This document shows, one piece after another, positions 34,038 to 45,668 of a stretch of DNA of 63,306 nt. The stretch covers positions 1-63,306 of the forward strand of contig VFJJ01000019.1 of the NCBI GenBank assembly GCA_009886115.1, given 5' to 3'. This DNA is from Actinomycetota bacterium (GTDB lineage: Bacteria; Actinomycetota; Acidimicrobiia; IMCC26256; VFJJ01). A program made the position numbers and the translations under genes. Position 1 is the first letter of the stretch; every line of letters starts with the position of its first letter. A model generated the notes under the pieces. The model was given only the letters and a program-made list of their open reading frames with translations. It did not search any database and had not been told where the DNA came from.

Positions 34038-35339
34038 ATGTCCCGACTCGATCGGCGTTCAGGCACGTTCGCCGCGCTGGCCGTGGGCAACTACCGCTCG
34101 TACTTCTTCGGCGCGGCCGTTTCGCAGACCGGGTCGTGGATGCAGACGATCGCGCTGGGCTGGATGGTCGTGCGCCTCGGTGGCGGCGGTGTCGAGCTCG
34201 GGATCATGGCCGTCCTGCAGTTCAGCCCGGCTCTCGTCGGCGGCATGATCGGTGGCGTGATCGCCGACCGCTACGACCGGCGGCGGCTGCTCGTGGCGAC
34301 GCAGGCGGCTTTCGCCGGCGTCGCTGCGTCGCTGACGGTGCTCTCGGCCATGGGCGCCGCCCGCATGTGGAGCCTGGGGCTGTGTGCGTTCTGCGCGGGC
34401 TGCGTGATGACCGTCGACAACCCGACCCGCCACTCGCTGGCCATCGAGCTGGTCGGCCCGAAGCTGGTCGCCAACGCGCTGACGCTCAACAGCGTGGCGT
34501 TCAACGCAGCTCGGGTCGTGGGCCCGGCCATCGCCGGCGTGGTGATCGGAACCGTGGGCACGAGTTGGTGCTTCGGCATCAACGCCGTGTCGTTCGCAGC
34601 GGTGATCGTCCCACTGATGCGCGTCGATGTCACGAAGCTGTACCGACCCGAGCGAGCTGGCCCGGCCGGTACGGGGCGCATCCGCGACGGCCTCCGCTAC
34701 GCGCTCGAAACGCCCGAGGTTCGCGTCCCGCTGGTGATGATCGCCGTCGTCGGCACCCTGGCGTTCAACTGGAACGTGTCGGTCCTGCTACTCGCCCGGG
34801 CGCTCGACGGAGGGGCCGGGGCATACGGCGCGCTGATGACGGGCATGGGCGTCGGCGCAGTCACCGGTGGTCTCGTGGCGGCCGGGCGGGCGGCGTCCGA
34901 TCACCGCCGGTTGTGTCGAGCAGCCATCGCGCTCGGCGTGCTCCTGCTCGCCGCGTCATTGGCGCCCAACCTCCCCTTGGCCGTCGGGCTCCTCGCAGCG
35001 TCGGGCGTGGCCAACATCACGTTCGTCGCCACGGCCAACGCCCGCCTCCAGCTCGCGGCCCGTCCCGACATGCGCGGGCGGGTGATGGCCCTGTGGACCA
35101 TGGCCTTCGTCGGTTCCACGCCCATCGGCGGCATGCTGGCGGGCCTCGCCGGCGAGCTCATCGATCTCCGGGCCGGCCTGGCCATCGGCGGCATCGGCGC
35201 CGCCGCAGCCGGCATGGTCGCCCTGGCTGCCGACGCCAGCGACCGCCGAGATCGAGGCCCGGCGACCGATGACCGTCCCGTCAGGCTCAGGCCCGGACGA
35301 CGACGACGCGAGGTTGCACATCACGAACGAGAAGCGTGA
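34038..35339 (+). CDS. MFS transporter (MFS_3/H+ antiporter-like)
   Basis: SQTGSWMQ, GVIADRYDRRR, NAARVVGPA and MRGRVM. Confidence 0.88.
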   Translation: MSRLDRRSGTFAALAVGNYRSYFFGAAVSQTGSWMQTIALGWMVVRLGGGGVELGIMAVLQFSPALVGGMIGGVIADRYDRRRLLVATQAAFAGVAASLTVLSAMGAARMWSLGLCAFCAGCVMTVDNPTRHSLAIELVGPKLVANALTLNSVAFNAARVVGPAIAGVVIGTVGTSWCFGINAVSFAAVIVPLMRVDVTKLYRPERAGPAGTGRIRDGLRYALETPEVRVPLVMIAVVGTLAFNWNVSVLLLARALDGGAGAYGALMTGMGVGAVTGGLVAAGRAASDHRRLCRAAIALGVLLLAASLAPNLPLAVGLLAASGVANITFVATANARLQLAARPDMRGRVMALWTMAFVGSTPIGGMLAGLAGELIDLRAGLAIGGIGAAAAGMVALAADASDRRDRGPATDDRPVRLRPGRRRREVAHHEREA

Positions 35340-36205: not shown

Positions 36206-37432
36206 CTACAGGATCGCGCCGCTGATCTTGTGCTCGATGATCTCGTCCATCGACAGGCCCAGCTCGGTGAGCACCTCATCGGTGTGCTCGCCGTGGCCGG
36301 GGGCGGGCCGGAGCGAGGACGGCGTCTCGTCGAACTGCACGGGGTTGGCGACCAGCCCGAGCGGCTTCGAAGCACCGGGGAGCTCGACGGGCAGCACGTA
36401 GCCGTTCGCCGCGACCTGCGGATCGTCGTGCACGTCGAGCGGCGTCTGGTACACCGCCCACACGCCCTTCACCGTCTCGAGGGCCTCACGCCACTGGGCC
36501 ACGGTCCGCTGCCCGAACACCTCGTCGAGCGTCTCGACACAGGCCCTGGCGTTCTCAGCCCGGGCCCGCGAGTCGACGAAGCGCGGATCGTCGATCAGCT
36601 CGGGACGGCCGATGTGCTGGCACAGGTCACCCCAGAAACGGTCGGATTCGAGCATCACCAGGCTGATGAAACGGCCGTCCTGGGTGCGGTACGTGTTGAC
36701 GATCGGGTTGGGCATGTCGCGCCGGTCGCGACCGCCACCGGCGGGCATGTCGAAGAGCTTGGCGGCCACGATGAACGGCGACATCGCCCACATCGCCGTG
36801 CCCAGCAAGGAGATGTCGACGATCTTGGCCTCGCCGGTGCGCTCACGGTGGAAGAGCGCCGCGGCGATCCCCCCGGCGATCGTCTGCGCCCCTTGGAGAT
36901 CGCCGAACGCCGGAGTCTGCATGATCGGCCACTCGCGGTCGCCCGGCGTCAGCTGCACGCCTGCCGTGCCCCGGGCCCAGTACGAGGCGCCGTCGTAGCC
37001 GCCCTTGCTTGCGTCGGGGCCACGGATGCCCTGGCCGGTCCCGCGGGCGTAGATGATCTTGGGGTTGCGGGCCCGGATGTGCTCGACGTCGATCTTGAGG
37101 CGGGAGCGGGGGCCGGGCAGGAAGTTCGTGAGGAACACGTCGGCCGTCTCGACGAGGCGGTACAGGAGCTCGCGACCGGCGTCGGTGCCCATGTCGATCC
37201 CCACGGAGCGCTTGCCCCGGTTGGGTTGCTCGATCATGAAGTTGGGTATGTCGGCGCCGCCGGGGACCAGCCCCGAGGTGATCAGACCCCGCTGTGGATC
37301 GCCGCTCTCGGGGTGCTCGATCTTGAGCACGTCGGCTCCCCAGTCGGCGAGCACGGCGCCGGCTGCTGGCACGAACGTCCACGACGCCACCTCGACCACC
37401 CGGATACCGCTCATCACGTCGCGCATCGTCAA
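36206..37432 (-). CDS. Class III CoA-transferase (CaiB/BaiF)
   Basis: GIRVVE, LADWGADV.KIE, NRGKRS, GYD and GEHTDEVL. Confidence 0.93.
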   Translation of the reverse strand: MTMRDVMSGIRVVEVASWTFVPAAGAVLADWGADVLKIEHPESGDPQRGLITSGLVPGGADIPNFMIEQPNRGKRSVGIDMGTDAGRELLYRLVETADVFLTNFLPGPRSRLKIDVEHIRARNPKIIYARGTGQGIRGPDASKGGYDGASYWARGTAGVQLTPGDREWPIMQTPAFGDLQGAQTIAGGIAAALFHRERTGEAKIVDISLLGTAMWAMSPFIVAAKLFDMPAGGGRDRRDMPNPIVNTYRTQDGRFISLVMLESDRFWGDLCQHIGRPELIDDPRFVDSRARAENARACVETLDEVFGQRTVAQWREALETVKGVWAVYQTPLDVHDDPQVAANGYVLPVELPGASKPLGLVANPVQFDETPSSLRPAPGHGEHTDEVLTELGLSMDEIIEHKISGAIL

Positions 37433-37491: not shown

Positions 37492-38742
37492 TCAACCCGA
37501 TCCCGTGCCCGCGCGCAGATGGTCGTGGCGGCTCATCGGCAGCAGGTAGAACCACAGCGGATGGGGCGCGCCGCCGGCCTTCATGGCGGTCTGCGCGCGC
37601 TTCATGACCCGGCCGGCCTCGGTCTGGTCGACGTACCAGCCCTCGGTCTGACGGGCTGCGGGCACGTGAGCGACGAGTGACAGCGCAGCCTCCTCGTAGA
37701 ACGCCCTGATGTCGGCGGCACACGAGATCGGATCACCCGGGATCGCCGCCTCCTTCCACGCCAGCCCGTCGGCCACGGCAGCGAACCTCCCGAGCGCGTC
37801 GGGGACCTGCTCGGCCGTGAGCACCTTGCCCAGCGACGTGCGACCGGTGCGCTCGAAGGTCCGCCGATACGCGGCCAGCAGTCCTCGGGCCTCGTCGACC
37901 GCCGCTGGCACCCCGGCATCGAAGCGAGGCGGGAGCGGGCACGACAGGGCCTCGTCGGCCTCGGCGACGATGATGTCGGGGAAGTGAGCGAGCACCGGGA
38001 TCTCGTCGGCCGGGGTGGCCAACAGCGCGAACGCCGCCGCCAGCACGCCGTGCTGGTACTCGGGATCAAGGGGACGGCCCAGCGGGCGGCCCAGCGGGAA
38101 CTCGCAGTAGAGCGCTCGCGGGGCCCGCATACGTCGGGCCTGACCGAGCACCGATGCCAACGCCACCGTCGCGATCCCGGCGGCCTCGAAGATCTGTGCG
38201 AGCACACCCACGGTGCGCGTGCACAGCGGTCAGACGGGGGTGAGCAGGACGACGTCGACCTCGTCGTCGATGAGCAGCTGCGCGGCGGCCGGGCCGGTGT
38301 CGAGGCGCATGGTCGAGAGCTCGTGATCGAGTTGGGCGCCCATGAACGAGATGTGCCGCGGAGCCACCGAGCCGATCACGCCGCGACCCGCCAGCTCATG
38401 GAGACGATCGATCGGGAACACCACGTTGGCGTCGGCCATGAAGCCGCTGCGATCGAAGTTGGGCGACATGTGGCCCAGGCCCAAGCCCGACATGTGGCCC
38501 AAGCCCGAGCCCGAGCCGCCGTCGATGGTCGTGGGGAGCGGGTCGGCGATCACGGTGAACGACTGATCGCCGGCCATCCAGCGCAGCGAGCCGTCGGTAC
38601 GGAGCCCGGCCGTGGTGACGATCGCCACGCGGGCCTCGGCCAAGGGCTTCGGCGCGGTGTACGCCACCGTCGGGAACTCGTAGACGGCGAGACCGTCGAC
38701 CGCCGCTCGAACCTTTGCGTCGCCACCGTGATCGTCGCCCAT
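37492..38742 (-). CDS. Putative selenoprotein, PrdB/GrdB (selenoprotein B) family with C-terminal extension, 416 aa, Sec at codon 171
   Basis: ORFs 38230..38742 and 37492..38211 are in frame and separated only by TGA plus 6 codons: DVVLLTPV-TGA-PLCTRTVG..Q..EAAGIATV...PRAL...FPLG.PLG. N-terminal half has RVAIVTTAG, D.NVVFPIDRL and G.IGSVA..H.SFMG. Confidence 0.8.
38194..38232 (-). promoter_or_regulatory. Candidate bacterial SECIS element 3' of the in-frame UGA
   Basis: UGA-CCG-CUGUGC-AC-GCGCACC-GUG-GGUGUGC-UC-GCACAG: two stems, a 2x2 internal loop and a G-initiated apical loop 18 nt after the UGA. Confidence 0.65.
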
Positions 38743-40112
38743 GGGGCCTCCCCGCCGAGGGTCGAGGCTATCGCTCGCGGGCCTGAGAGAATGGGGTCGT
38801 GACATGCCGGCGCTGGTGCCATCCCGAGTGCTGATTCCCGCGCTGGCTCCCGTCTCCACACGGGCCCCGAGCCGGACATGATCGTCCCCCGGTCGTTTCG
38901 CGTGCTGCGCCACCGGGACTTCGCGCTCGTCCAGGTGGGCAACGCCGTGTCGAACCTGGGGACGTGGATGCAGTACGTGGGTCTGGGCTGGGCGACCCGC
39001 GAGCTCACCGACTCGACGCTCGTGCTCGGTCTGGCCTTTGCGTCGCAGTTCACCCCGTTCCTGTTCGTGACCCCCATCGCCGGCGTCGTCGCCGATCGGT
39101 ACGACCGGCGCCGCGTCGTCCTCGCCATGAACCTCTTCATGGCCGTCCCCCCGATCGTGATCGGGCTCATGGTCGCCCGTGGGACGATCACCGTGGCCTG
39201 GCTGCTCGTGCTCAGCCTGATCCTGGGGACGGCCAACGCCATGGCCGCCCCGGCCTCGCAGGCGGTGGTGCCCGCGCTGGTCCCGGCGGCGGAGCTTCCG
39301 CAGGCGGTCGGGTTCCAGACGACGGCCATGAACCTGGCTCGCATCGCCGGACCCTCGGTCGGAGGGGTGGCGATCGGAGCGTGGGGCCTCGACTGGGCCT
39401 TCTACCTCAACGGGCTCAGCTTCCTGGCCGTCGTGGTGGCCTGGGCCGCTGTACGTCCCGAGGGGACGCGCGCCACGGGCGTCGCCGCGGAACCCTTCCT
39501 CTCCAGCCTCCGCCGGGGCGCGGCCTACGCCCGCAGCGAGACGGTGATCCGCCGGCTGGTGATGCTGTCCGGCGTGCTGGCGCTGTTTCCATACCATGCG
39601 GCGCTGATGCCGGTGATCGCTCGGGACGTGCTCGACGGGGGCGTCTCGGCGTACGGCATGCTGTCGTCGGCCACCGGTTTCGGTGCCGTCGTCGGGGCCT
39701 TCATCGCCACCGAGATCAACACCGATCGTCAGCGACGGTTGACGATCACCAACGGCGCCATGGCCGCTGGCCTGGCCATCGTGGCCTTGTCGTTCTCGCG
39801 CAACCTCACGCTCTCGGTGTGTTGCCTCGCGGTGTTCGGGCTGGGATTCTTCTCGTTCATGGCCCCGTCGACGACGGTGATCATGATGATGACGCCTGAC
39901 GGGTACCGCGGTCGCGTCCTGGGCCTGTTCACGATGGTCAACACCGGCGGCGTACCGATCGCAGCCGTGACCGGTGGCCTGCTCAGCGCCTGGCTCGGCC
40001 CGACGACGACCGTGCTGATCGGAGGGACCGCCATGGCGTCCTTCGCGATCTGGTTCGCCGCCTCCCGGTCACTCCGGCTGCTCGGAGCGCCAAGCCCGCC
40101 GGGCGAGGCCGA

Positions 40113-41066
<954 letters not shown>

Positions 41067-41073
41067 GGTCGTC

Positions 41074-44000
41074 CTACTCGCTCATGGCTTCGGAGGAGAG
41101 CGCGAAGACCTCGCGCAGCTCGGAGGTCGACAACTCGGTGAGCCACGACTCGCCCGTGCCCACGATGCGATCGGCCAAGGCCCGCTTGCGCTCGATCATG
41201 GCGTCGATGCGCTCCTCGAGCGTCCCGACGCAGATCAGCTTGCGCACCTGCACGTTACGGACCTGGCCGATGCGGAACGCCCGGTCGGTGGCCTGCTCCT
41301 CGACCGCGGGGTTCCACCACCGGTCGAAGTGGATCACGTGGTTGGCTGCGGTGAGGTTCAAGCCGGTGCCTCCAGCCTTGAGCGAGAGCAGGAAGATCGA
41401 CGGGCCGCCCGGCGCTTGGAACCGCTCGACCATCGTGTCACGGTGCTTCTTCGGAACGCCGCCGTGCAACCACAAGGCCTCGACGCCCAGGCGCTCCTGG
41501 AGGTGCGGTCGCAGCAGCTCGCCCATCTCCGCGTACTGCGTGAACACGAGAGCCCGGTCTCCCTCGGCCACGACCTCTTCGAGCGTCTCGACGAGACGTT
41601 CGAGCTTGCCCGAACGGCCATCGAGGCGTGAGTGGTCACCGAGCAGGTGAGCCGGGTGGTTGCACACCTGCTTGAGCTTGAGCATGGTCACGAGCACCAG
41701 ACCCTTGCGGGCCATGCCATCGCGCTCGTCGAGACGATCCATGGCATCGTCGACGATCGCTTGGTAGAGCGACGCCTGCTCGGCCGTCAGGTTGCAGAAC
41801 ACCTTCATCTCGATCTTCTCGGGCAGATCGTCGATCACCGTCTTGTCGGTCTTCAGACGGCGTAGCACCAGCGGACGGGTGACCTGCCGGAGCCGCTCAG
41901 CGGCCTCTTCATCGCCCTGGCGCTCGATGGGGATCGCGAAACGCTCGCGAAAGCGCGCCTGCGCGCCCAGGAGCCCGGGGTTCAGGAACTCCATGATCGA
42001 CCACAACTCCTGCAGCCGATTCTCGACCGGCGTGCCGGTGAGGGCCACACGATGCTGCGCCACCAACGATCGGACCGCCTTCGACTGGCGAGCCGCCGGG
42101 TTCTTCACGTTCTGGGCCTCGTCGAGCACGATCCGCCGCCAGCTCACGGTCGCCAGACCGGCGTGGTCGCGCACGACGAGGGGGTAGGTCGTGAGCACCA
42201 GATCAGCGTCGAGGACGGCCGCGGTGAACGTGGCCCCACGCAACCGTTGGGCGCCGTGGTGTACGAGCACCCGCAAGCCCGGAGCGAAGCGTTGCGCCTC
42301 CCGTTGCCAGTTGCCGACCACCGACATCGGGCACACGACCAGCGTGGGTCCCGTCGCCGCCGGGTTCAGCGGCTCGGGCGTCGTGGACGGAGTCGACTCC
42401 GCCGTTGGCGCAGACCGGGCGACGGATCGGGCCCGGGTCTTGGGTCGGGCGGGAGCCAGCAACGCCACGGCGGTCAGCTCGGGGCGTGGCGCTTCCTGCT
42501 CGGCCACCAGCAAGGCCAGGAGCTGCGCGGTCTTGCCCAGACCCATGTCGTCGGCGAGGCACGCTCCCACCCCGAGGACGGCGAGGAAGCGCAACCAGGC
42601 CAGACCCCGCTCCTGATAGGGCCGGAGCGTCCCGCAGAACCCGGCGGGCGCCGTGCCGAGCTCGATCCTGCGCTCAGCGCTCCCGTCGAGGAGATCACCC
42701 AGCCAGCCGTCAGCCGCGACGCCGACCACGTTGAGCCCGGTCTCCGACGGCCGAACACCCAGTGCGGCCTGCAGGGCATCGGTGACCGACATCGCACCGT
42801 CGAAGCCTTCGCGCTCGTCGCCCGCCGGGATCGCGGCATCGATCTTGGCCCGCTTGCGCAGGAAGCGCAGCGCTGCGTCGACATCGCGCTGGTCGACGAT
42901 CGTCCACCGGCCCTTGACCCGTACGAGCGGCTGCTTGAGCCGGGCCATCTCGGCCAACTCCTCGGCGTCGAGCGAGTCGTCGCCCAGCGCGATCTCCCAG
43001 CGATAGCGCACCAGGCCGGCGAGACCGAGCTCGCCTCCTGTCACCCCGCCCGTCGGGCTCGGGGTCGAGAGCCGGAGACGGGCCCCCAGCCGACGCTTCG
43101 ACTCCCGCCACCACGGCGGAACCAGCGCTGCGACGCCGATGGTGTCGAGCAGCGAAGCACCATCCTGGAGGAAGTGCAGCGCGGCAGCACCGTCGAGCTC
43201 GAGCGGGGCCGGACGGGCGCCGGCGAGCATCCGCTCCAGCGGCGGGTACAACCGGGCGGCGCGAGCGAGCTGTTCGAGCAGCCGCTCCTCGGGAAAGGGG
43301 TCACGGCGCGCGAGCAGGTCGCGCGCCGGAGACCCGTCCCAGAGCTCTGCGGCCGGCACCAAGAGCGAAGGCTCGGCGACATCCTGCAGGAGCGCTTCGA
43401 GGCGGAAACCGCCGGGGTCAAGCGTTGCCGCAACGACATCGCCAACGCCGGCCTCGGACTCGGGCTCGATCTCGGCGAGCCGGAGGCACAGTCGAAGATC
43501 GGCGACGCCCACGTCGGCACTGGCGTGCCAATCTTCGAGCACCGAAACCAGCGCGTTCAGGTCGTCGTCGCTGGCCTGGCGCACCCGCCCGTCAGGCGTG
43601 GTCAACGCTGCGAGCCAGGCTTCGGTCGCGCTCCGGCGGCCCCTCCGGGCCACCACGACGGGGAACGACGACAGCGTCTCACGCACCGAGATGTCGGCGA
43701 TGGCGTCGACGATCTCGCGCACGACGGTCGTGGCATCGGTGCGCCCCGGCGACTCGCACATGACCGAACCGGGCAGCGACTCGGCCAGCGCCAACGCCGA
43801 CTGGAGGGCGGCCGGGGTGGGCACGGCACGCCAGCGTGCTCTCCAGCCGTCGTCGACCTTCACCAAGGCCGGCAGCACGCGACCTCCCCGCGCCAGCTCG
43901 ACAGCCAGCTCGACCACCTGAGCGATGGCGGTCACCGACTCGCCGATCGCCACGCCCGCGCTGGCGTGCAGATCGCCGAGCACGTCGATCGCCACACCCG

Positions 44001-44376
44001 TGCGCACGATCAGCGCCGGGACCGACCACTCGCGTCGCCGCGCCCGACCGACAGGCAGCGGGGCATCCCAGAGCTGGTGTGAAGCGTCGGGCCGGTCACC
44101 GTGGCTCGGCAACGAGAGCACGAGCGTCGTCGCGGTCGTGCCGACTGTTCCCAGATGCTCACGCAACCTGGCGGTCTCGGCTGTGAACGGGTGGCGGGGC
44201 GCGTCGGGGGCACCGGTCACGCCGGCATCGGCATCGGCATCGGCGCCGACGCCGACGCCGGTGTCGGCGCCGACGTGAGCACCCGGGTGGGCGTCGTCGT
44301 GTGCGTCCGGCGGAACAGACTCGGCCCAGATGGCGAGCGCGCCGGGACGCGCCCACAGCCCATGCAACACCAGCAT
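41074..44376 (-). CDS. SNF2-family helicase/translocase with an N-terminal associated domain
   Basis: LRPYQ, LADDMGLGKT, DEAQ, LTGTPVEN, SLKAGG.GLNL and DRWWNPAVE.QATDRAFRIGQ; start MLVLHGLW at 44376. Confidence 0.95.
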   Translation of the reverse strand: MLVLHGLWARPGALAIWAESVPPDAHDDAHPGAHVGADTGVGVGADADADAGVTGAPDAPRHPFTAETARLREHLGTVGTTATTLVLSLPSHGDRPDASHQLWDAPLPVGRARRREWSVPALIVRTGVAIDVLGDLHASAGVAIGESVTAIAQVVELAVELARGGRVLPALVKVDDGWRARWRAVPTPAALQSALALAESLPGSVMCESPGRTDATTVVREIVDAIADISVRETLSSFPVVVARRGRRSATEAWLAALTTPDGRVRQASDDDLNALVSVLEDWHASADVGVADLRLCLRLAEIEPESEAGVGDVVAATLDPGGFRLEALLQDVAEPSLLVPAAELWDGSPARDLLARRDPFPEERLLEQLARAARLYPPLERMLAGARPAPLELDGAAALHFLQDGASLLDTIGVAALVPPWWRESKRRLGARLRLSTPSPTGGVTGGELGLAGLVRYRWEIALGDDSLDAEELAEMARLKQPLVRVKGRWTIVDQRDVDAALRFLRKRAKIDAAIPAGDEREGFDGAMSVTDALQAALGVRPSETGLNVVGVAADGWLGDLLDGSAERRIELGTAPAGFCGTLRPYQERGLAWLRFLAVLGVGACLADDMGLGKTAQLLALLVAEQEAPRPELTAVALLAPARPKTRARSVARSAPTAESTPSTTPEPLNPAATGPTLVVCPMSVVGNWQREAQRFAPGLRVLVHHGAQRLRGATFTAAVLDADLVLTTYPLVVRDHAGLATVSWRRIVLDEAQNVKNPAARQSKAVRSLVAQHRVALTGTPVENRLQELWSIMEFLNPGLLGAQARFRERFAIPIERQGDEEAAERLRQVTRPLVLRRLKTDKTVIDDLPEKIEMKVFCNLTAEQASLYQAIVDDAMDRLDERDGMARKGLVLVTMLKLKQVCNHPAHLLGDHSRLDGRSGKLERLVETLEEVVAEGDRALVFTQYAEMGELLRPHLQERLGVEALWLHGGVPKKHRDTMVERFQAPGGPSIFLLSLKAGGTGLNLTAANHVIHFDRWWNPAVEEQATDRAFRIGQVRNVQVRKLICVGTLEERIDAMIERKRALADRIVGTGESWLTELSTSELREVFALSSEAMSE

Positions 44377-44378
44377 CG

Positions 44379-45668
44379 TCAGCGCGGACCCACCCCGGCC
44401 GCAGCCCTCGTGATCTGGCGCCAGGCATCGAGATCGGAAGCGTCGGAACGACGCCCGACCCGGGTCACCGTGTCGACGTCGGTGGCCTCGGCCCGCAGCG
44501 CGGCCGACGTGCACCGCTCCTTGGGACGGGTGGCGAACGGGTCGAAGTGATAGTGGCGCATGGCGTTCTCGTGGGTGATCTTGTTCACCACGTCATCGGG
44601 GACACCTTCGAACAACACCGCCAAGCTCTCGGGGCCGTTGGGCCACGAGGAATCGGAGTGGGGGTAGTCGGACTCCCAGCAGAGGTTGTCGATGTTGAAC
44701 TCGTCGAGCAGCTTCACCCCGACCCGATCGTCGATGAAGCAGCAGAGGATGCGATCACGGAAGAGCTCGGACGGGGTCATGCCGTTGAGGAGCTCGGCGC
44801 CGATCCAGGCATTGTGACGGCGATAGACGTGCTCGGCTCTCTGCAAGAAATACGGGATCCATCCCACATCGCCTTCGGTCAATGAGAAGCGCAACGTTGG
44901 GAACCTCGTCCAGAATTCAGCCCAGATAAGGTCGGCCATCGTGTAGATAGACATGCTTGACGAGATAGCCATGGGAACACTCAGTGGAGCATCGGGAGTG
45001 GTCATCGCTCCCTTTGACGACGACCCCACGTGGCAGCACAGCACCGTCTCGGTGTCGACACACGCAGCGAAGAGGGGGTCCCATTCGCCGCTGTGGATCG
45101 ACGGCGCTCCGATGGCCGACGGGTTCTCGGAGAACGTGACCGCATGGCAGCCCTTGGCCGCGAGGCGGCGGACCTCCTTGGCCGCCTCTTCGACGTCGAA
45201 GTACGGCAGCACTCCACAGGGGATGAACCGATCGGGATGGGCGCCGCACCACTCGTCGACGTGCCAGTCGTTGTACGCCTTGACCATGACGAGGTTGACG
45301 TCGCGATCGGGGCCCTGGTTGAGCACCTGGCCGGTGAAGCCGGGCCAGTTCGGGAAGTTCAACCCGGCCAGGACCCCACCGGCCGACATGTCGCGCACCC
45401 GCTCGTGAACGTCGTAGCACCCCGGGCGCATCTCGTCGTACCGGTTCGGGTTGACGTTGAAGAACTCGGGCGGCTTCCCGGCCACGGCGTTCAGCCCGAG
45501 GTTGCGGCCCTTCAGCTCGCCGTACCACCACTGCTGGTAACCATGCTCGTCGGTCTCGACGCGGGGTGCCCGGTCGCGGTAGCGCTCGGGCACGTGGGCG
45601 TGGAACATCTCGGCCGGTTCGGCGATGTGATCGTCGACCGAGACGAGGATCATGTCGTCGGCGTTCAT
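44379..45668 (-). CDS. Amidohydrolase family protein
   Basis: VSVDDH..EP, AYNDW and WESDYPHSDS.WP. Confidence 0.9.
   Translation of the reverse strand: MNADDMILVSVDDHIAEPAEMFHAHVPERYRDRAPRVETDEHGYQQWWYGELKGRNLGLNAVAGKPPEFFNVNPNRYDEMRPGCYDVHERVRDMSAGGVLAGLNFPNWPGFTGQVLNQGPDRDVNLVMVKAYNDWHVDEWCGAHPDRFIPCGVLPYFDVEEAAKEVRRLAAKGCHAVTFSENPSAIGAPSIHSGEWDPLFAACVDTETVLCCHVGSSSKGAMTTPDAPLSVPMAISSSMSIYTMADLIWAEFWTRFPTLRFSLTEGDVGWIPYFLQRAEHVYRRHNAWIGAELLNGMTPSELFRDRILCCFIDDRVGVKLLDEFNIDNLCWESDYPHSDSSWPNGPESLAVLFEGVPDDVVNKITHENAMRHYHFDPFATRPKERCTSAALRAEATDVDTVTRVGRRSDASDLDAWRQITRAAAGVGPR

Follow-up and report, generated by a model that had tools for sequence, protein, structure and literature searches.

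A 63,306-nucleotide (nt) stretch of DNA from an actinobacterium of the class Acidimicrobiia (contig VFJJ01000019.1 of assembly GCA_009886115.1, positions 1 to 63,306 of the forward strand; referred to hereafter as the window) carries two in-frame open reading frames (ORFs) that are separated by a single TGA codon. The present analysis suggests that the two ORFs very probably constitute one gene, which would encode a 416-residue selenoprotein of the GrdB/PrdB superfamily with selenocysteine (Sec) at position 171, the insertion of Sec being guided by a selenocysteine insertion sequence (SECIS) hairpin, and that the protein works without the partner subunits of the Stickland reductases. A preliminary description of the window, made from its letters alone, had proposed the core of this reading, i.e., a single gene that has a SECIS hairpin, lacks reductase partners, and contains a UGA codon read as Sec within a U-x-x-C motif, and that core is now strongly supported. 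The motif around codon 171 reads ...DVVLLTPV-U-PLC-TRTVG.... Gene callers cut the coding sequence (CDS) into pieces of ~170 amino acids (aa) and 239 aa, the latter started from GTG, and public gene calls split the Sec forms of the family in general, so that many fragments of ~230 aa are labeled "hypothetical protein."

Conservation of the in-frame TGA codon

In a set of 61 related genomes (G000 and 60 others of its order), 15 gave a match, and the codon homologous to codon 171 is TGA in all 13 full-length homologs, which come from 11 genomes, two of them from one marked unpublished (G054), and which share 50-82% identity. The TGA codon of these homologs lies inside the motif TP[VI]-U-P-x-C-[TS]-R. 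A scan of species genomes, one genome per species, returned at least 591 relatives, and TGA was found at the equivalent of codon 171 in 80 of the best 80 loci, on which the counts are based, at identities of only 50-60%; a sequence pattern recognized 76 of these and inspection the other 4, and all 80 were caught by a pattern applied subsequently. A metagenome scan seeded with Cys-form proteins returned at least 505 relatives, and here the best 80 loci, again those counted, comprise 78 with TGA and 2 with TGT at that codon. The phylum sample of 401 genomes gave eight full-length matches, seven with TGA and one (from G199) with TGC. Several carriers in this sample (G150, G361, and G448) have closed genomes that consist of one contig. 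Among 65 unsplit homologs from the databases, position 171 is occupied by Cys in 50, Gly in 12, Ser in 2, and Ala in 1, and Cys174 recurs in every one of the 66 aligned sequences. The carriers, judged by the titles of their records, include Acidimicrobiia (Microthrix, Ilumatobacteraceae), Binatia, Deltaproteobacteria/Myxococcota, Chloroflexota, and Acidobacteriota. The earlier reading had looked to homologs for TGA or Cys at this codon and for a conserved hairpin; the codon is indeed TGA, or mostly Cys, and the stem of the downstream hairpin is conserved as well, as described below. At the level of sequence comparison, this Sec/Cys pattern is that expected of a selenoprotein, and the case that such comparison makes for selenocysteine is about as strong as evidence of its kind can be.

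If translation ended at the TGA codon, the locus would instead produce two proteins, one of ~170 aa and one of 239 aa started from GTG. Such a split agrees with the public gene calls, which cut the locus in two, and the final stop of the gene is TGA also, so TGA does serve as a stop codon in the host. The six codons that lie between the TGA and the GTG, however, encode the conserved residues P-L-C-T-R-T and would have to be non-coding in a split gene, and because the invariant Cys174 is among them we exclude the split as highly improbable. Moreover, the break falls at the identical codon in all of the best 80 genome loci and in 78 of the best 80 metagenome loci at the low identities given above, the homologs with a Cys codon are single unsplit proteins, and the genome of the host holds the full Sec machinery. 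The joined chain was also predicted to form one compact fold in an AlphaFold2 model built on a 66-row alignment (predicted local distance difference test (pLDDT), 93.2; predicted template modeling score, 0.92).

A conserved hairpin downstream of the TGA codon

The preliminary description had pointed out a hairpin beginning 3 nt past the UGA, with CUGUGC/GCACAG as the outer stem, GCGCACC/GGUGUGC as the inner stem, and GUG as the loop, and this hairpin is present in the sequence exactly as described, at 38226..38194. Conservation is limited to the inner stem; of the outer CUGUGC/GCACAG stem, the outermost pair is found in only 2 of 14 relatives. Folded alone, the 33-nt hairpin has an energy of -19.7 kcal/mol (z = -2.60; 4 of 200 shuffles were as good). 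Because the DNA is rich in G+C, such a fold of a single sequence proves little, and it is the conservation data that carry weight. With columns numbered from the U of UGA (column 1), the consensus fold of 14 sequences has columns 15-20 paired with columns 26-31 in a 6-bp stem and also retains two outer pairs and a loop of 5 nt in which G22 and U23 are invariant. Across 78 distinct sequences, 97.9% of the stem cells are paired, a proportion as high as which was reached by none of 500 shuffles, and partners that were slid along the sequence pair in at most 65.9% of the cells. One stem pair is C-G in 38 of these sequences and U-A in 36, which is a compensatory change, and in part of the family Thr/Val residues are exchanged for Val/Thr without loss of the stem (GCGCACC/GGUGUGC versus GCGUGUC/GGCACGC). 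Of 77 TGA loci, 73 have the stem intact with its six pairs, and none of the three loci with a Cys codon does, each retaining just 2-3 of them.

The start of the conserved stem, 11 nt past the UGA, and the G-U in its loop appear to agree with the minimal SECIS element of Escherichia coli fdhF. The two elements presumably share their placement, both being stem-loops within the CDS immediately 3' of the UGA. The 6-bp stem conserved here nevertheless differs in having no bulged U, and the sequences of the two are unrelated.

Selenocysteine machinery of the host

The assembly of the host, with a completeness of 95.6%, comprises 224 contigs that total 5.45 Mb. Profile searches of it detected selD (398 bits), selA (459 bits), and, adjoining selA, selB (294 bits), all above the curated cutoffs, and a tRNA-Sec gene that scores 66 bits against an Rfam gathering score of 47; ARAGORN identifies this gene as tRNA-SeC and gives its anticodon as tca. 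The machinery whose presence in the genome the earlier reading presupposed, selA, selB, selD, and tRNA-Sec, is therefore complete. In an assembly fragmented into 224 contigs, a TGA codon inside a gene might also arise from an error of sequencing or assembly, or mark a recent pseudogene. The chance of this seems negligible, as the identical TGA is found in independent assemblies from many species and phyla and the frame downstream of it is conserved at the protein level.

Domains and conserved residues of the predicted selenoprotein

The coordinates of the gene and its parts are listed in Table 1. The final stop codon differs among the loci of the family, being TGA, TAG, or TAA, and in this window and in the same-genus genome G001, one mRNA would carry both a TGA for Sec and a TGA as its final stop.

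Table 1. Positions in the window of the predicted selenoprotein gene, of its parts, and of the gene downstream
Feature	Position	Strand	Description and basis
Predicted selenoprotein CDS, whole	37492..38742	minus	416 codons and the final stop; translated with TGA as U; homologs span residues 1-416
Start codon ATG	38742-38740	minus	Sequence reading
Shine-Dalgarno-like GGGGAGG	38747..38753	minus	4 nt 5' of the ATG; direct sequence reading
In-frame TGA, codon 171, putative Sec codon	38230..38232	minus	TGA kept across homolog loci, Cys in most unsplit homologs
Cys174, partner cysteine in U-x-x-C	38221..38223	minus	Invariant in the aligned sequences (66 of 66)
Final stop, also TGA	37494-37492	minus	Translation
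PrdB/GrdB-like alpha/beta domain, residues 27-241	38020..38664	minus	Holds the U-x-x-C site; TIGR04483, PF07355, fold of the model
All-helical C-terminal domain, residues 259-416 (~158 residues)	37495..37968	minus	AlphaFold2; no Pfam match; kept in full-length homologs
Cys268 in the motif S/A-C-P-L-P-P-R	37939..37941	minus	In the linker 5' of the helical domain; Cys in 59 of 66 aligned sequences
Putative SECIS hairpin of the gene	38194..38226	minus	Fold and covariation
Conserved core of the putative SECIS	38198-38222	minus	Covariation
6-bp upper stem and 5-nt loop N-G-U-N-N of the putative SECIS	38202-38218	minus	Begins 11 nt past the UGA
Family III CoA-transferase gene	36206..37432	minus	Downstream, co-oriented, 59 bp off; PF02515, 302.6 bits; a neighbor, partnership not shown

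The similarity to known families runs across the stop, as had been claimed: the NCBIfam profile TIGR04483 (PrdB) aligns with residues 27-241 at 107.5 bits, covering profile positions 20-218 of 238, and its alignment crosses the TGA at codon 171. In the search of the genome, the same profile gave 101.7 bits, and the gene is the only TIGR04483-like gene of the host. The Pfam family GRDB (PF07355) matches residues 96-168 only, and with 23.5 bits against a gathering threshold of 22 the match is a marginal pass. In the AlphaFold2 model, residues ~32-258 form a Rossmann-like alpha/beta domain. Comparison of the whole model with solved structures by VIA-align returned proteins of the short-chain dehydrogenase/reductase (SDR) and LacI types for residues 32-258 (best Z, 8.2; root mean square deviation (rmsd), 3.4; 133 residues aligned), and we rejected an assignment to these families since the arrangement is a generic Rossmann-like one and the fold is common. 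A Foldseek search of the PDB with the whole model gave HldA as its best match, which is unusable (E = 2.1e-4; TM-score, 0.20), and a family-profile search of the solved structures gave nothing but a chance match to ClpP (E = 0.37) and found no structure of PrdB or GrdB.

The extra C-terminal part of ~150 aa that the preliminary description had reported is present, at residues of about 259-416, and when folded alone it was confidently predicted to be a helical domain (AlphaFold2; pLDDT, 93.2). No look-alike of this domain was found among solved structures, where the best match had a Z of 4.1 (rmsd, 4.2; 98 residues aligned) and no chain reached a Z of 5 or more, the best Foldseek match had an E value of 1.1, and no Pfam family matched. 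The ESM Atlas, searched with the C-terminal portion of a naturally occurring Cys homolog, returned unnamed clusters of "hypothetical proteins" with scores of 0.87-0.89, which are at most leads. The domain is common to all full-length homologs and particular to this family, clostridial PrdB having none.

Around the U-x-x-C site, the residues H91, S93, D97, R98, D104, N106, and R176 are invariant, the motif F-P-x-G-R-P-x-G-x-P-x-D is conserved, and further conserved cysteines are found at positions 213 and 268. Cys268 is present in 59 of the 66 aligned sequences and in all 14 of the Sec forms compared. The sequences without it are 7 of the 12 homologs with Gly171 and none of the 54 others, and this joint loss, as far as the alignment goes, may be read as a hint of functional coupling between positions 171 and 268, with the caveat that the seven rows may be one clade. 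As a separate observation, the Gly171 subgroup (12 of 65 unsplit homologs) may consist of forms without redox chemistry.

Some other sequences related to the gene were encountered. A second, shorter group of PrdB-sized proteins, of ~240-300 aa and 35-40% identical, has a TGA in frame within the motif [VA]-U-P-D-C-C-R-N, a different downstream hairpin, and no C-terminal helical domain; its members occur at loci L031, L032, L033, and L036 (genomes G019, G051, and G060) and in five genomes of the phylum sample. At G000:C143:3162-3428 (L037 1513-1773, plus strand), an ORF of 86 codons matches the C-terminal end of the paralog G001:C129 almost perfectly. The remainder of that second paralog is missing at G000:C143, where a methyltransferase-like ORF lies upstream on the opposite strand, and the short ORF appears to be the remnant of a second copy that was lost.

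Relationship to marine selenoproteins, PrdB, and GrdB

The family to which the protein belongs is not new. It is already catalogued, under the name "proline reductase (PrdB)," as a selenoprotein in marine metagenomes, and the description of the gene as a hidden selenoprotein does not stand, given that the family had been counted in one survey (PMC1088965) and printed with U in the supplement of another, on the Global Ocean Sampling (GOS) selenoproteome (PMC2398784). The first, the Sargasso Sea survey of Zhang, Fomenko and Gladyshev in 2005, reported 42 Sec genes with UXXC (PMC1088965), and Table 2 of the second, by Zhang and Gladyshev in 2008, lists pfam07355 with the motif UxxC in 235 Sec and 110 Cys forms (PMC2398784). 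In supplementary file 3 of the latter article, the reads of the section "#Proline reductase" run ...VVLLTPVUPLCTRTV...FPLGRPLG...SC.IPP...YEEA..., with the C-terminal domain included, and the file contains TPVUP 29 times and FPLGRPLG 27 times. The protein of the window has the PF07355 match, the UxxC motif with its putative Sec, and the likeness to these reads that mark the marine "Proline reductase" family, from which it differs in nothing essential; the present copy resides in an actinobacterium with a larger genome (5.4 Mb) and stands beside a CoA-transferase gene. In the portion consulted of a review from 2026, the entry is just "D-proline reductase, TIGR04483, UxxC" (PMC13188914), and the consulted portions of that review and of the two surveys (PMC1088965, PMC2398784) offer no comment on the missing PrdA or the extra domain. 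In the literature found on Acidimicrobiia, Microthrix, and marine Actinobacteria, the family is dealt with only in selenoproteome surveys, and the available part of the preprint "Actinomarina, resolved" makes no mention of it.

PrdB is the selenoprotein subunit of the clostridial D-proline reductase (Kabisch et al. 1999, as cited in PMC1088965). The predicted selenoprotein resembles it in being homologous over nearly the whole length of PrdB, in having its putative Sec at the equivalent U-x-x-C site, and in the position of the putative SECIS directly 3' of the UGA. The resemblance to GrdB, GrdF, and GrdH is more distant: PF07355 is just above its threshold, the NCBIfam matches lie in the C-terminal third of the profiles, which holds the Sec site, and the N-terminal region of ~270 residues is absent here. 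The scores for TIGR01917, TIGR01918, NF040794, and NF040795 are all below the respective cutoffs (29.8 against 602.2, 34.8 against 65.45, 50.5 against 800, and 43 against 775 bits).

It might still be supposed that the protein is a true PrdB or GrdB, which would serve in a Stickland D-proline or glycine reductase whose partner genes lie in unassembled parts of the genome. PrdB is, after all, its best NCBIfam match, Cys homologs are labeled "D-proline reductase (dithiol) PrdB" by the Joint Genome Institute, and the searches for partners were made without a positive control in a genome that is 95.6% complete. The scores nevertheless fall far short of what the families demand, with 107.5 bits where the equivalog cutoff for PrdB is 300, 29.8 where GrdB calls for 602, and 34.8 where the joint subfamily calls for 65.45. 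True PrdB functions only when complexed with pyruvoyl-PrdA, and the genes of the two lie together in one cluster (PMC11229817), whereas no match to PF09338 (PrdA/GrdE) was found in the host genome, a search in which the control genomes gave none either, and PF04723 (GrdA) likewise had no match there in a search that lacked a positive control. In agreement with the preliminary description, PrdA/GrdE and GrdA are thus missing from the genome-wide matches, within the limit set by these uncontrolled searches. Nor does any prdA- or grdE-like gene stand beside the homolog loci that were scanned with Pfam, comprising five loci in full and the representatives of recurrent clusters among the 80. The 158-residue helical domain added here has no counterpart in the 238-position PrdB profile, and the host appears to be aerobic, as its genome encodes subunit I of a haem-copper terminal oxidase (COX1). 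Taken together, these differences make membership in a Stickland reductase very doubtful. The preliminary description had considered the C-terminal domain and the absence of PrdA, GrdE, and GrdA to be unusual features of this gene, but both are the norm across this large family.

Several points weigh against our interpretation of the gene as encoding a self-sufficient selenoprotein. At position 171, Gly, Ser, or Ala takes the place of Cys in 15 of the 65 unsplit homologs, and the residue is consequently not indispensable in every lineage. The support for Sec insertion consists of comparative evidence and stays at the sequence level. The fold of the hairpin in its 71-nt context is no better than those of shuffled sequences (z = -0.33; 68 of 200), the Cys-form control for the hairpin is small, at three loci, and no Rfam family matches the hairpin, the three matches returned being chance ones with E above 4. 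A partner protein could have escaped detection in a genome of 95.6% completeness, given that no positive control accompanied the searches for PrdA/GrdE and GrdA. The chemistry of the protein, its reductant, and the role of its C-terminal domain are matters that we infer.

Genomic neighborhood

The gap of 59 bp between the gene and that of the family III CoA-transferase, which the preliminary description had given, is correct provided that the TTG start assigned to the latter gene is right. The two genes also adjoin each other in the same-genus genome and in G059. The neighborhoods of the family were surveyed with six-frame ORFs at 80 genome loci (81 with the stretch of this window), and a CoA-transferase III gene was found by tblastn within ~4 kb in only 4 of the 80. 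The inference of an acyl-CoA-linked substrate had thus been drawn from a neighbor that the family does not conserve. A gene for CoA-transferase III, acyl-CoA dehydrogenase, enoyl-CoA hydratase, or acyl-CoA ligase lies within ~4 kb in 23 of the 80 loci, a count for which there is no background estimate, and the acyl-CoA link is a weak lead. The commonest neighbor clusters at the 80 loci encode luciferase-like monooxygenases (12 and 8 loci), acyl-CoA dehydrogenase (11), and SDR proteins (10), and a conserved operon partner was rejected because even the commonest cluster occurs at no more than 12 of the 80.

Some further features of these neighborhoods may be recorded. The acyl-CoA dehydrogenase gene is co-stranded with the selenoprotein gene in 8 of the 11 loci, in Microthrix-like metagenome-assembled genomes (L062-L064 and related), and in L062 it begins 27 nt downstream of the selenoprotein gene. 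The large subunit of a molybdenum hydroxylase is encoded near the selenoprotein gene in eight loci and, in L062, directly after the dehydrogenase. The proximity of both genes may reflect shared ancestry, because these loci are close kin. In the window, a divergent transporter gene of the major facilitator superfamily (MFS) faces the selenoprotein gene, and two MFS_3-type paralogs, ~30% identical to each other (34038-35339 and 38878-40149, both on the plus strand), bracket the selenoprotein/CoA-transferase pair; the same-genus genome has both of them. Beyond them, a gene for a SWIM zinc-finger protein (40113-41066) adjoins that of a 1146-aa SNF2-family helicase with DUF3670 (41074-44514), on the minus strand, and in the same-genus genome the SWIM gene is syntenic and is followed by a long ORF of like size.

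Possible function of the selenoprotein

On the reading that we favor, a single gene for a selenoprotein without Stickland partners, SelB and tRNA-Sec would decode the UGA at codon 171 as Sec under the guidance of the hairpin, i.e., the conserved 6-bp stem that starts 11 nt past the UGA and the loop with its conserved G-U. What follows is modeled on the mechanisms of PrdB and GrdB. In true PrdB, proline is held on the pyruvoyl group of PrdA and the Sec residue attacks it at the alpha-carbon; activity was absent in the U151C variant, and the carbonyl of PrdA has been labeled with fluorescein thiosemicarbazide (PMC11229817). By analogy, Sec171 might act as the nucleophile in a reductive cleavage or a reduction, a selenenyl-sulfide would then form between Sec171 and Cys174, to be reduced again, perhaps, by thioredoxin or another dithiol of the cell. 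Judging from the missing partners, the protein would do so in an aerobic actinobacterium without a pyruvoyl subunit (PrdA/GrdE) and without GrdA. Because no pyruvoyl partner was found, and because the host respires O2, D-proline or glycine is unlikely to be its substrate in the manner of the Stickland reaction. The helical C-terminal domain, together with Cys268, probably completes the active site or a redox relay.

An extension of this idea, which we consider improbable, is that the protein is a self-contained selenium-dependent reductase of aerobes whose helical domain supplies within the chain what PrdA and GrdE provide as subunits. In its boldest form, the idea would make Cys268 either a third relay cysteine or a self-processing site at which, as at Cys421 of PrdA, a carbonyl (pyruvoyl) cofactor arises. 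The sole hint in its favor is the pattern in which Cys268 is lost, as described above, and no likeness to PrdA or GrdE was found in the sequence of the protein by Pfam or in its fold by structure comparison and Foldseek.

The protein may also be a real selenoprotein of a more general kind, a thiol/selenol-disulfide oxidoreductase or a protein that handles peroxide or sulfur, instead of a C-X reductase. Among the redox motifs of ocean selenoproteins, U-x-x-C is the most frequent (Table 3 of PMC1088965 and Table 2 of PMC2398784), the gene has no conserved operon partner or neighbor from a substrate pathway, and the conserved cysteines 213 and 268 could make a relay. We think this unlikely in view of the fold, which is the alpha/beta fold of GrdB/PrdB and not that of thioredoxin, and of the invariant non-cysteine residues around the site, which suggest a specific pocket for a small molecule and which some lineages with Gly171 still keep.

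Implications

The novelty of the finding is low, because it corrects an annotation within a family already catalogued as selenoproteins. For the host genome, the correction turns two "hypothetical" ORFs into one selenoprotein gene, and the corrected gene also confirms that the host uses selenocysteine. The name "proline reductase," under which the family is known, is probably wrong, as no PrdA protein accompanies it. The family itself is very common, with at least 591 loci in species genomes and at least 505 stretches in metagenomes.

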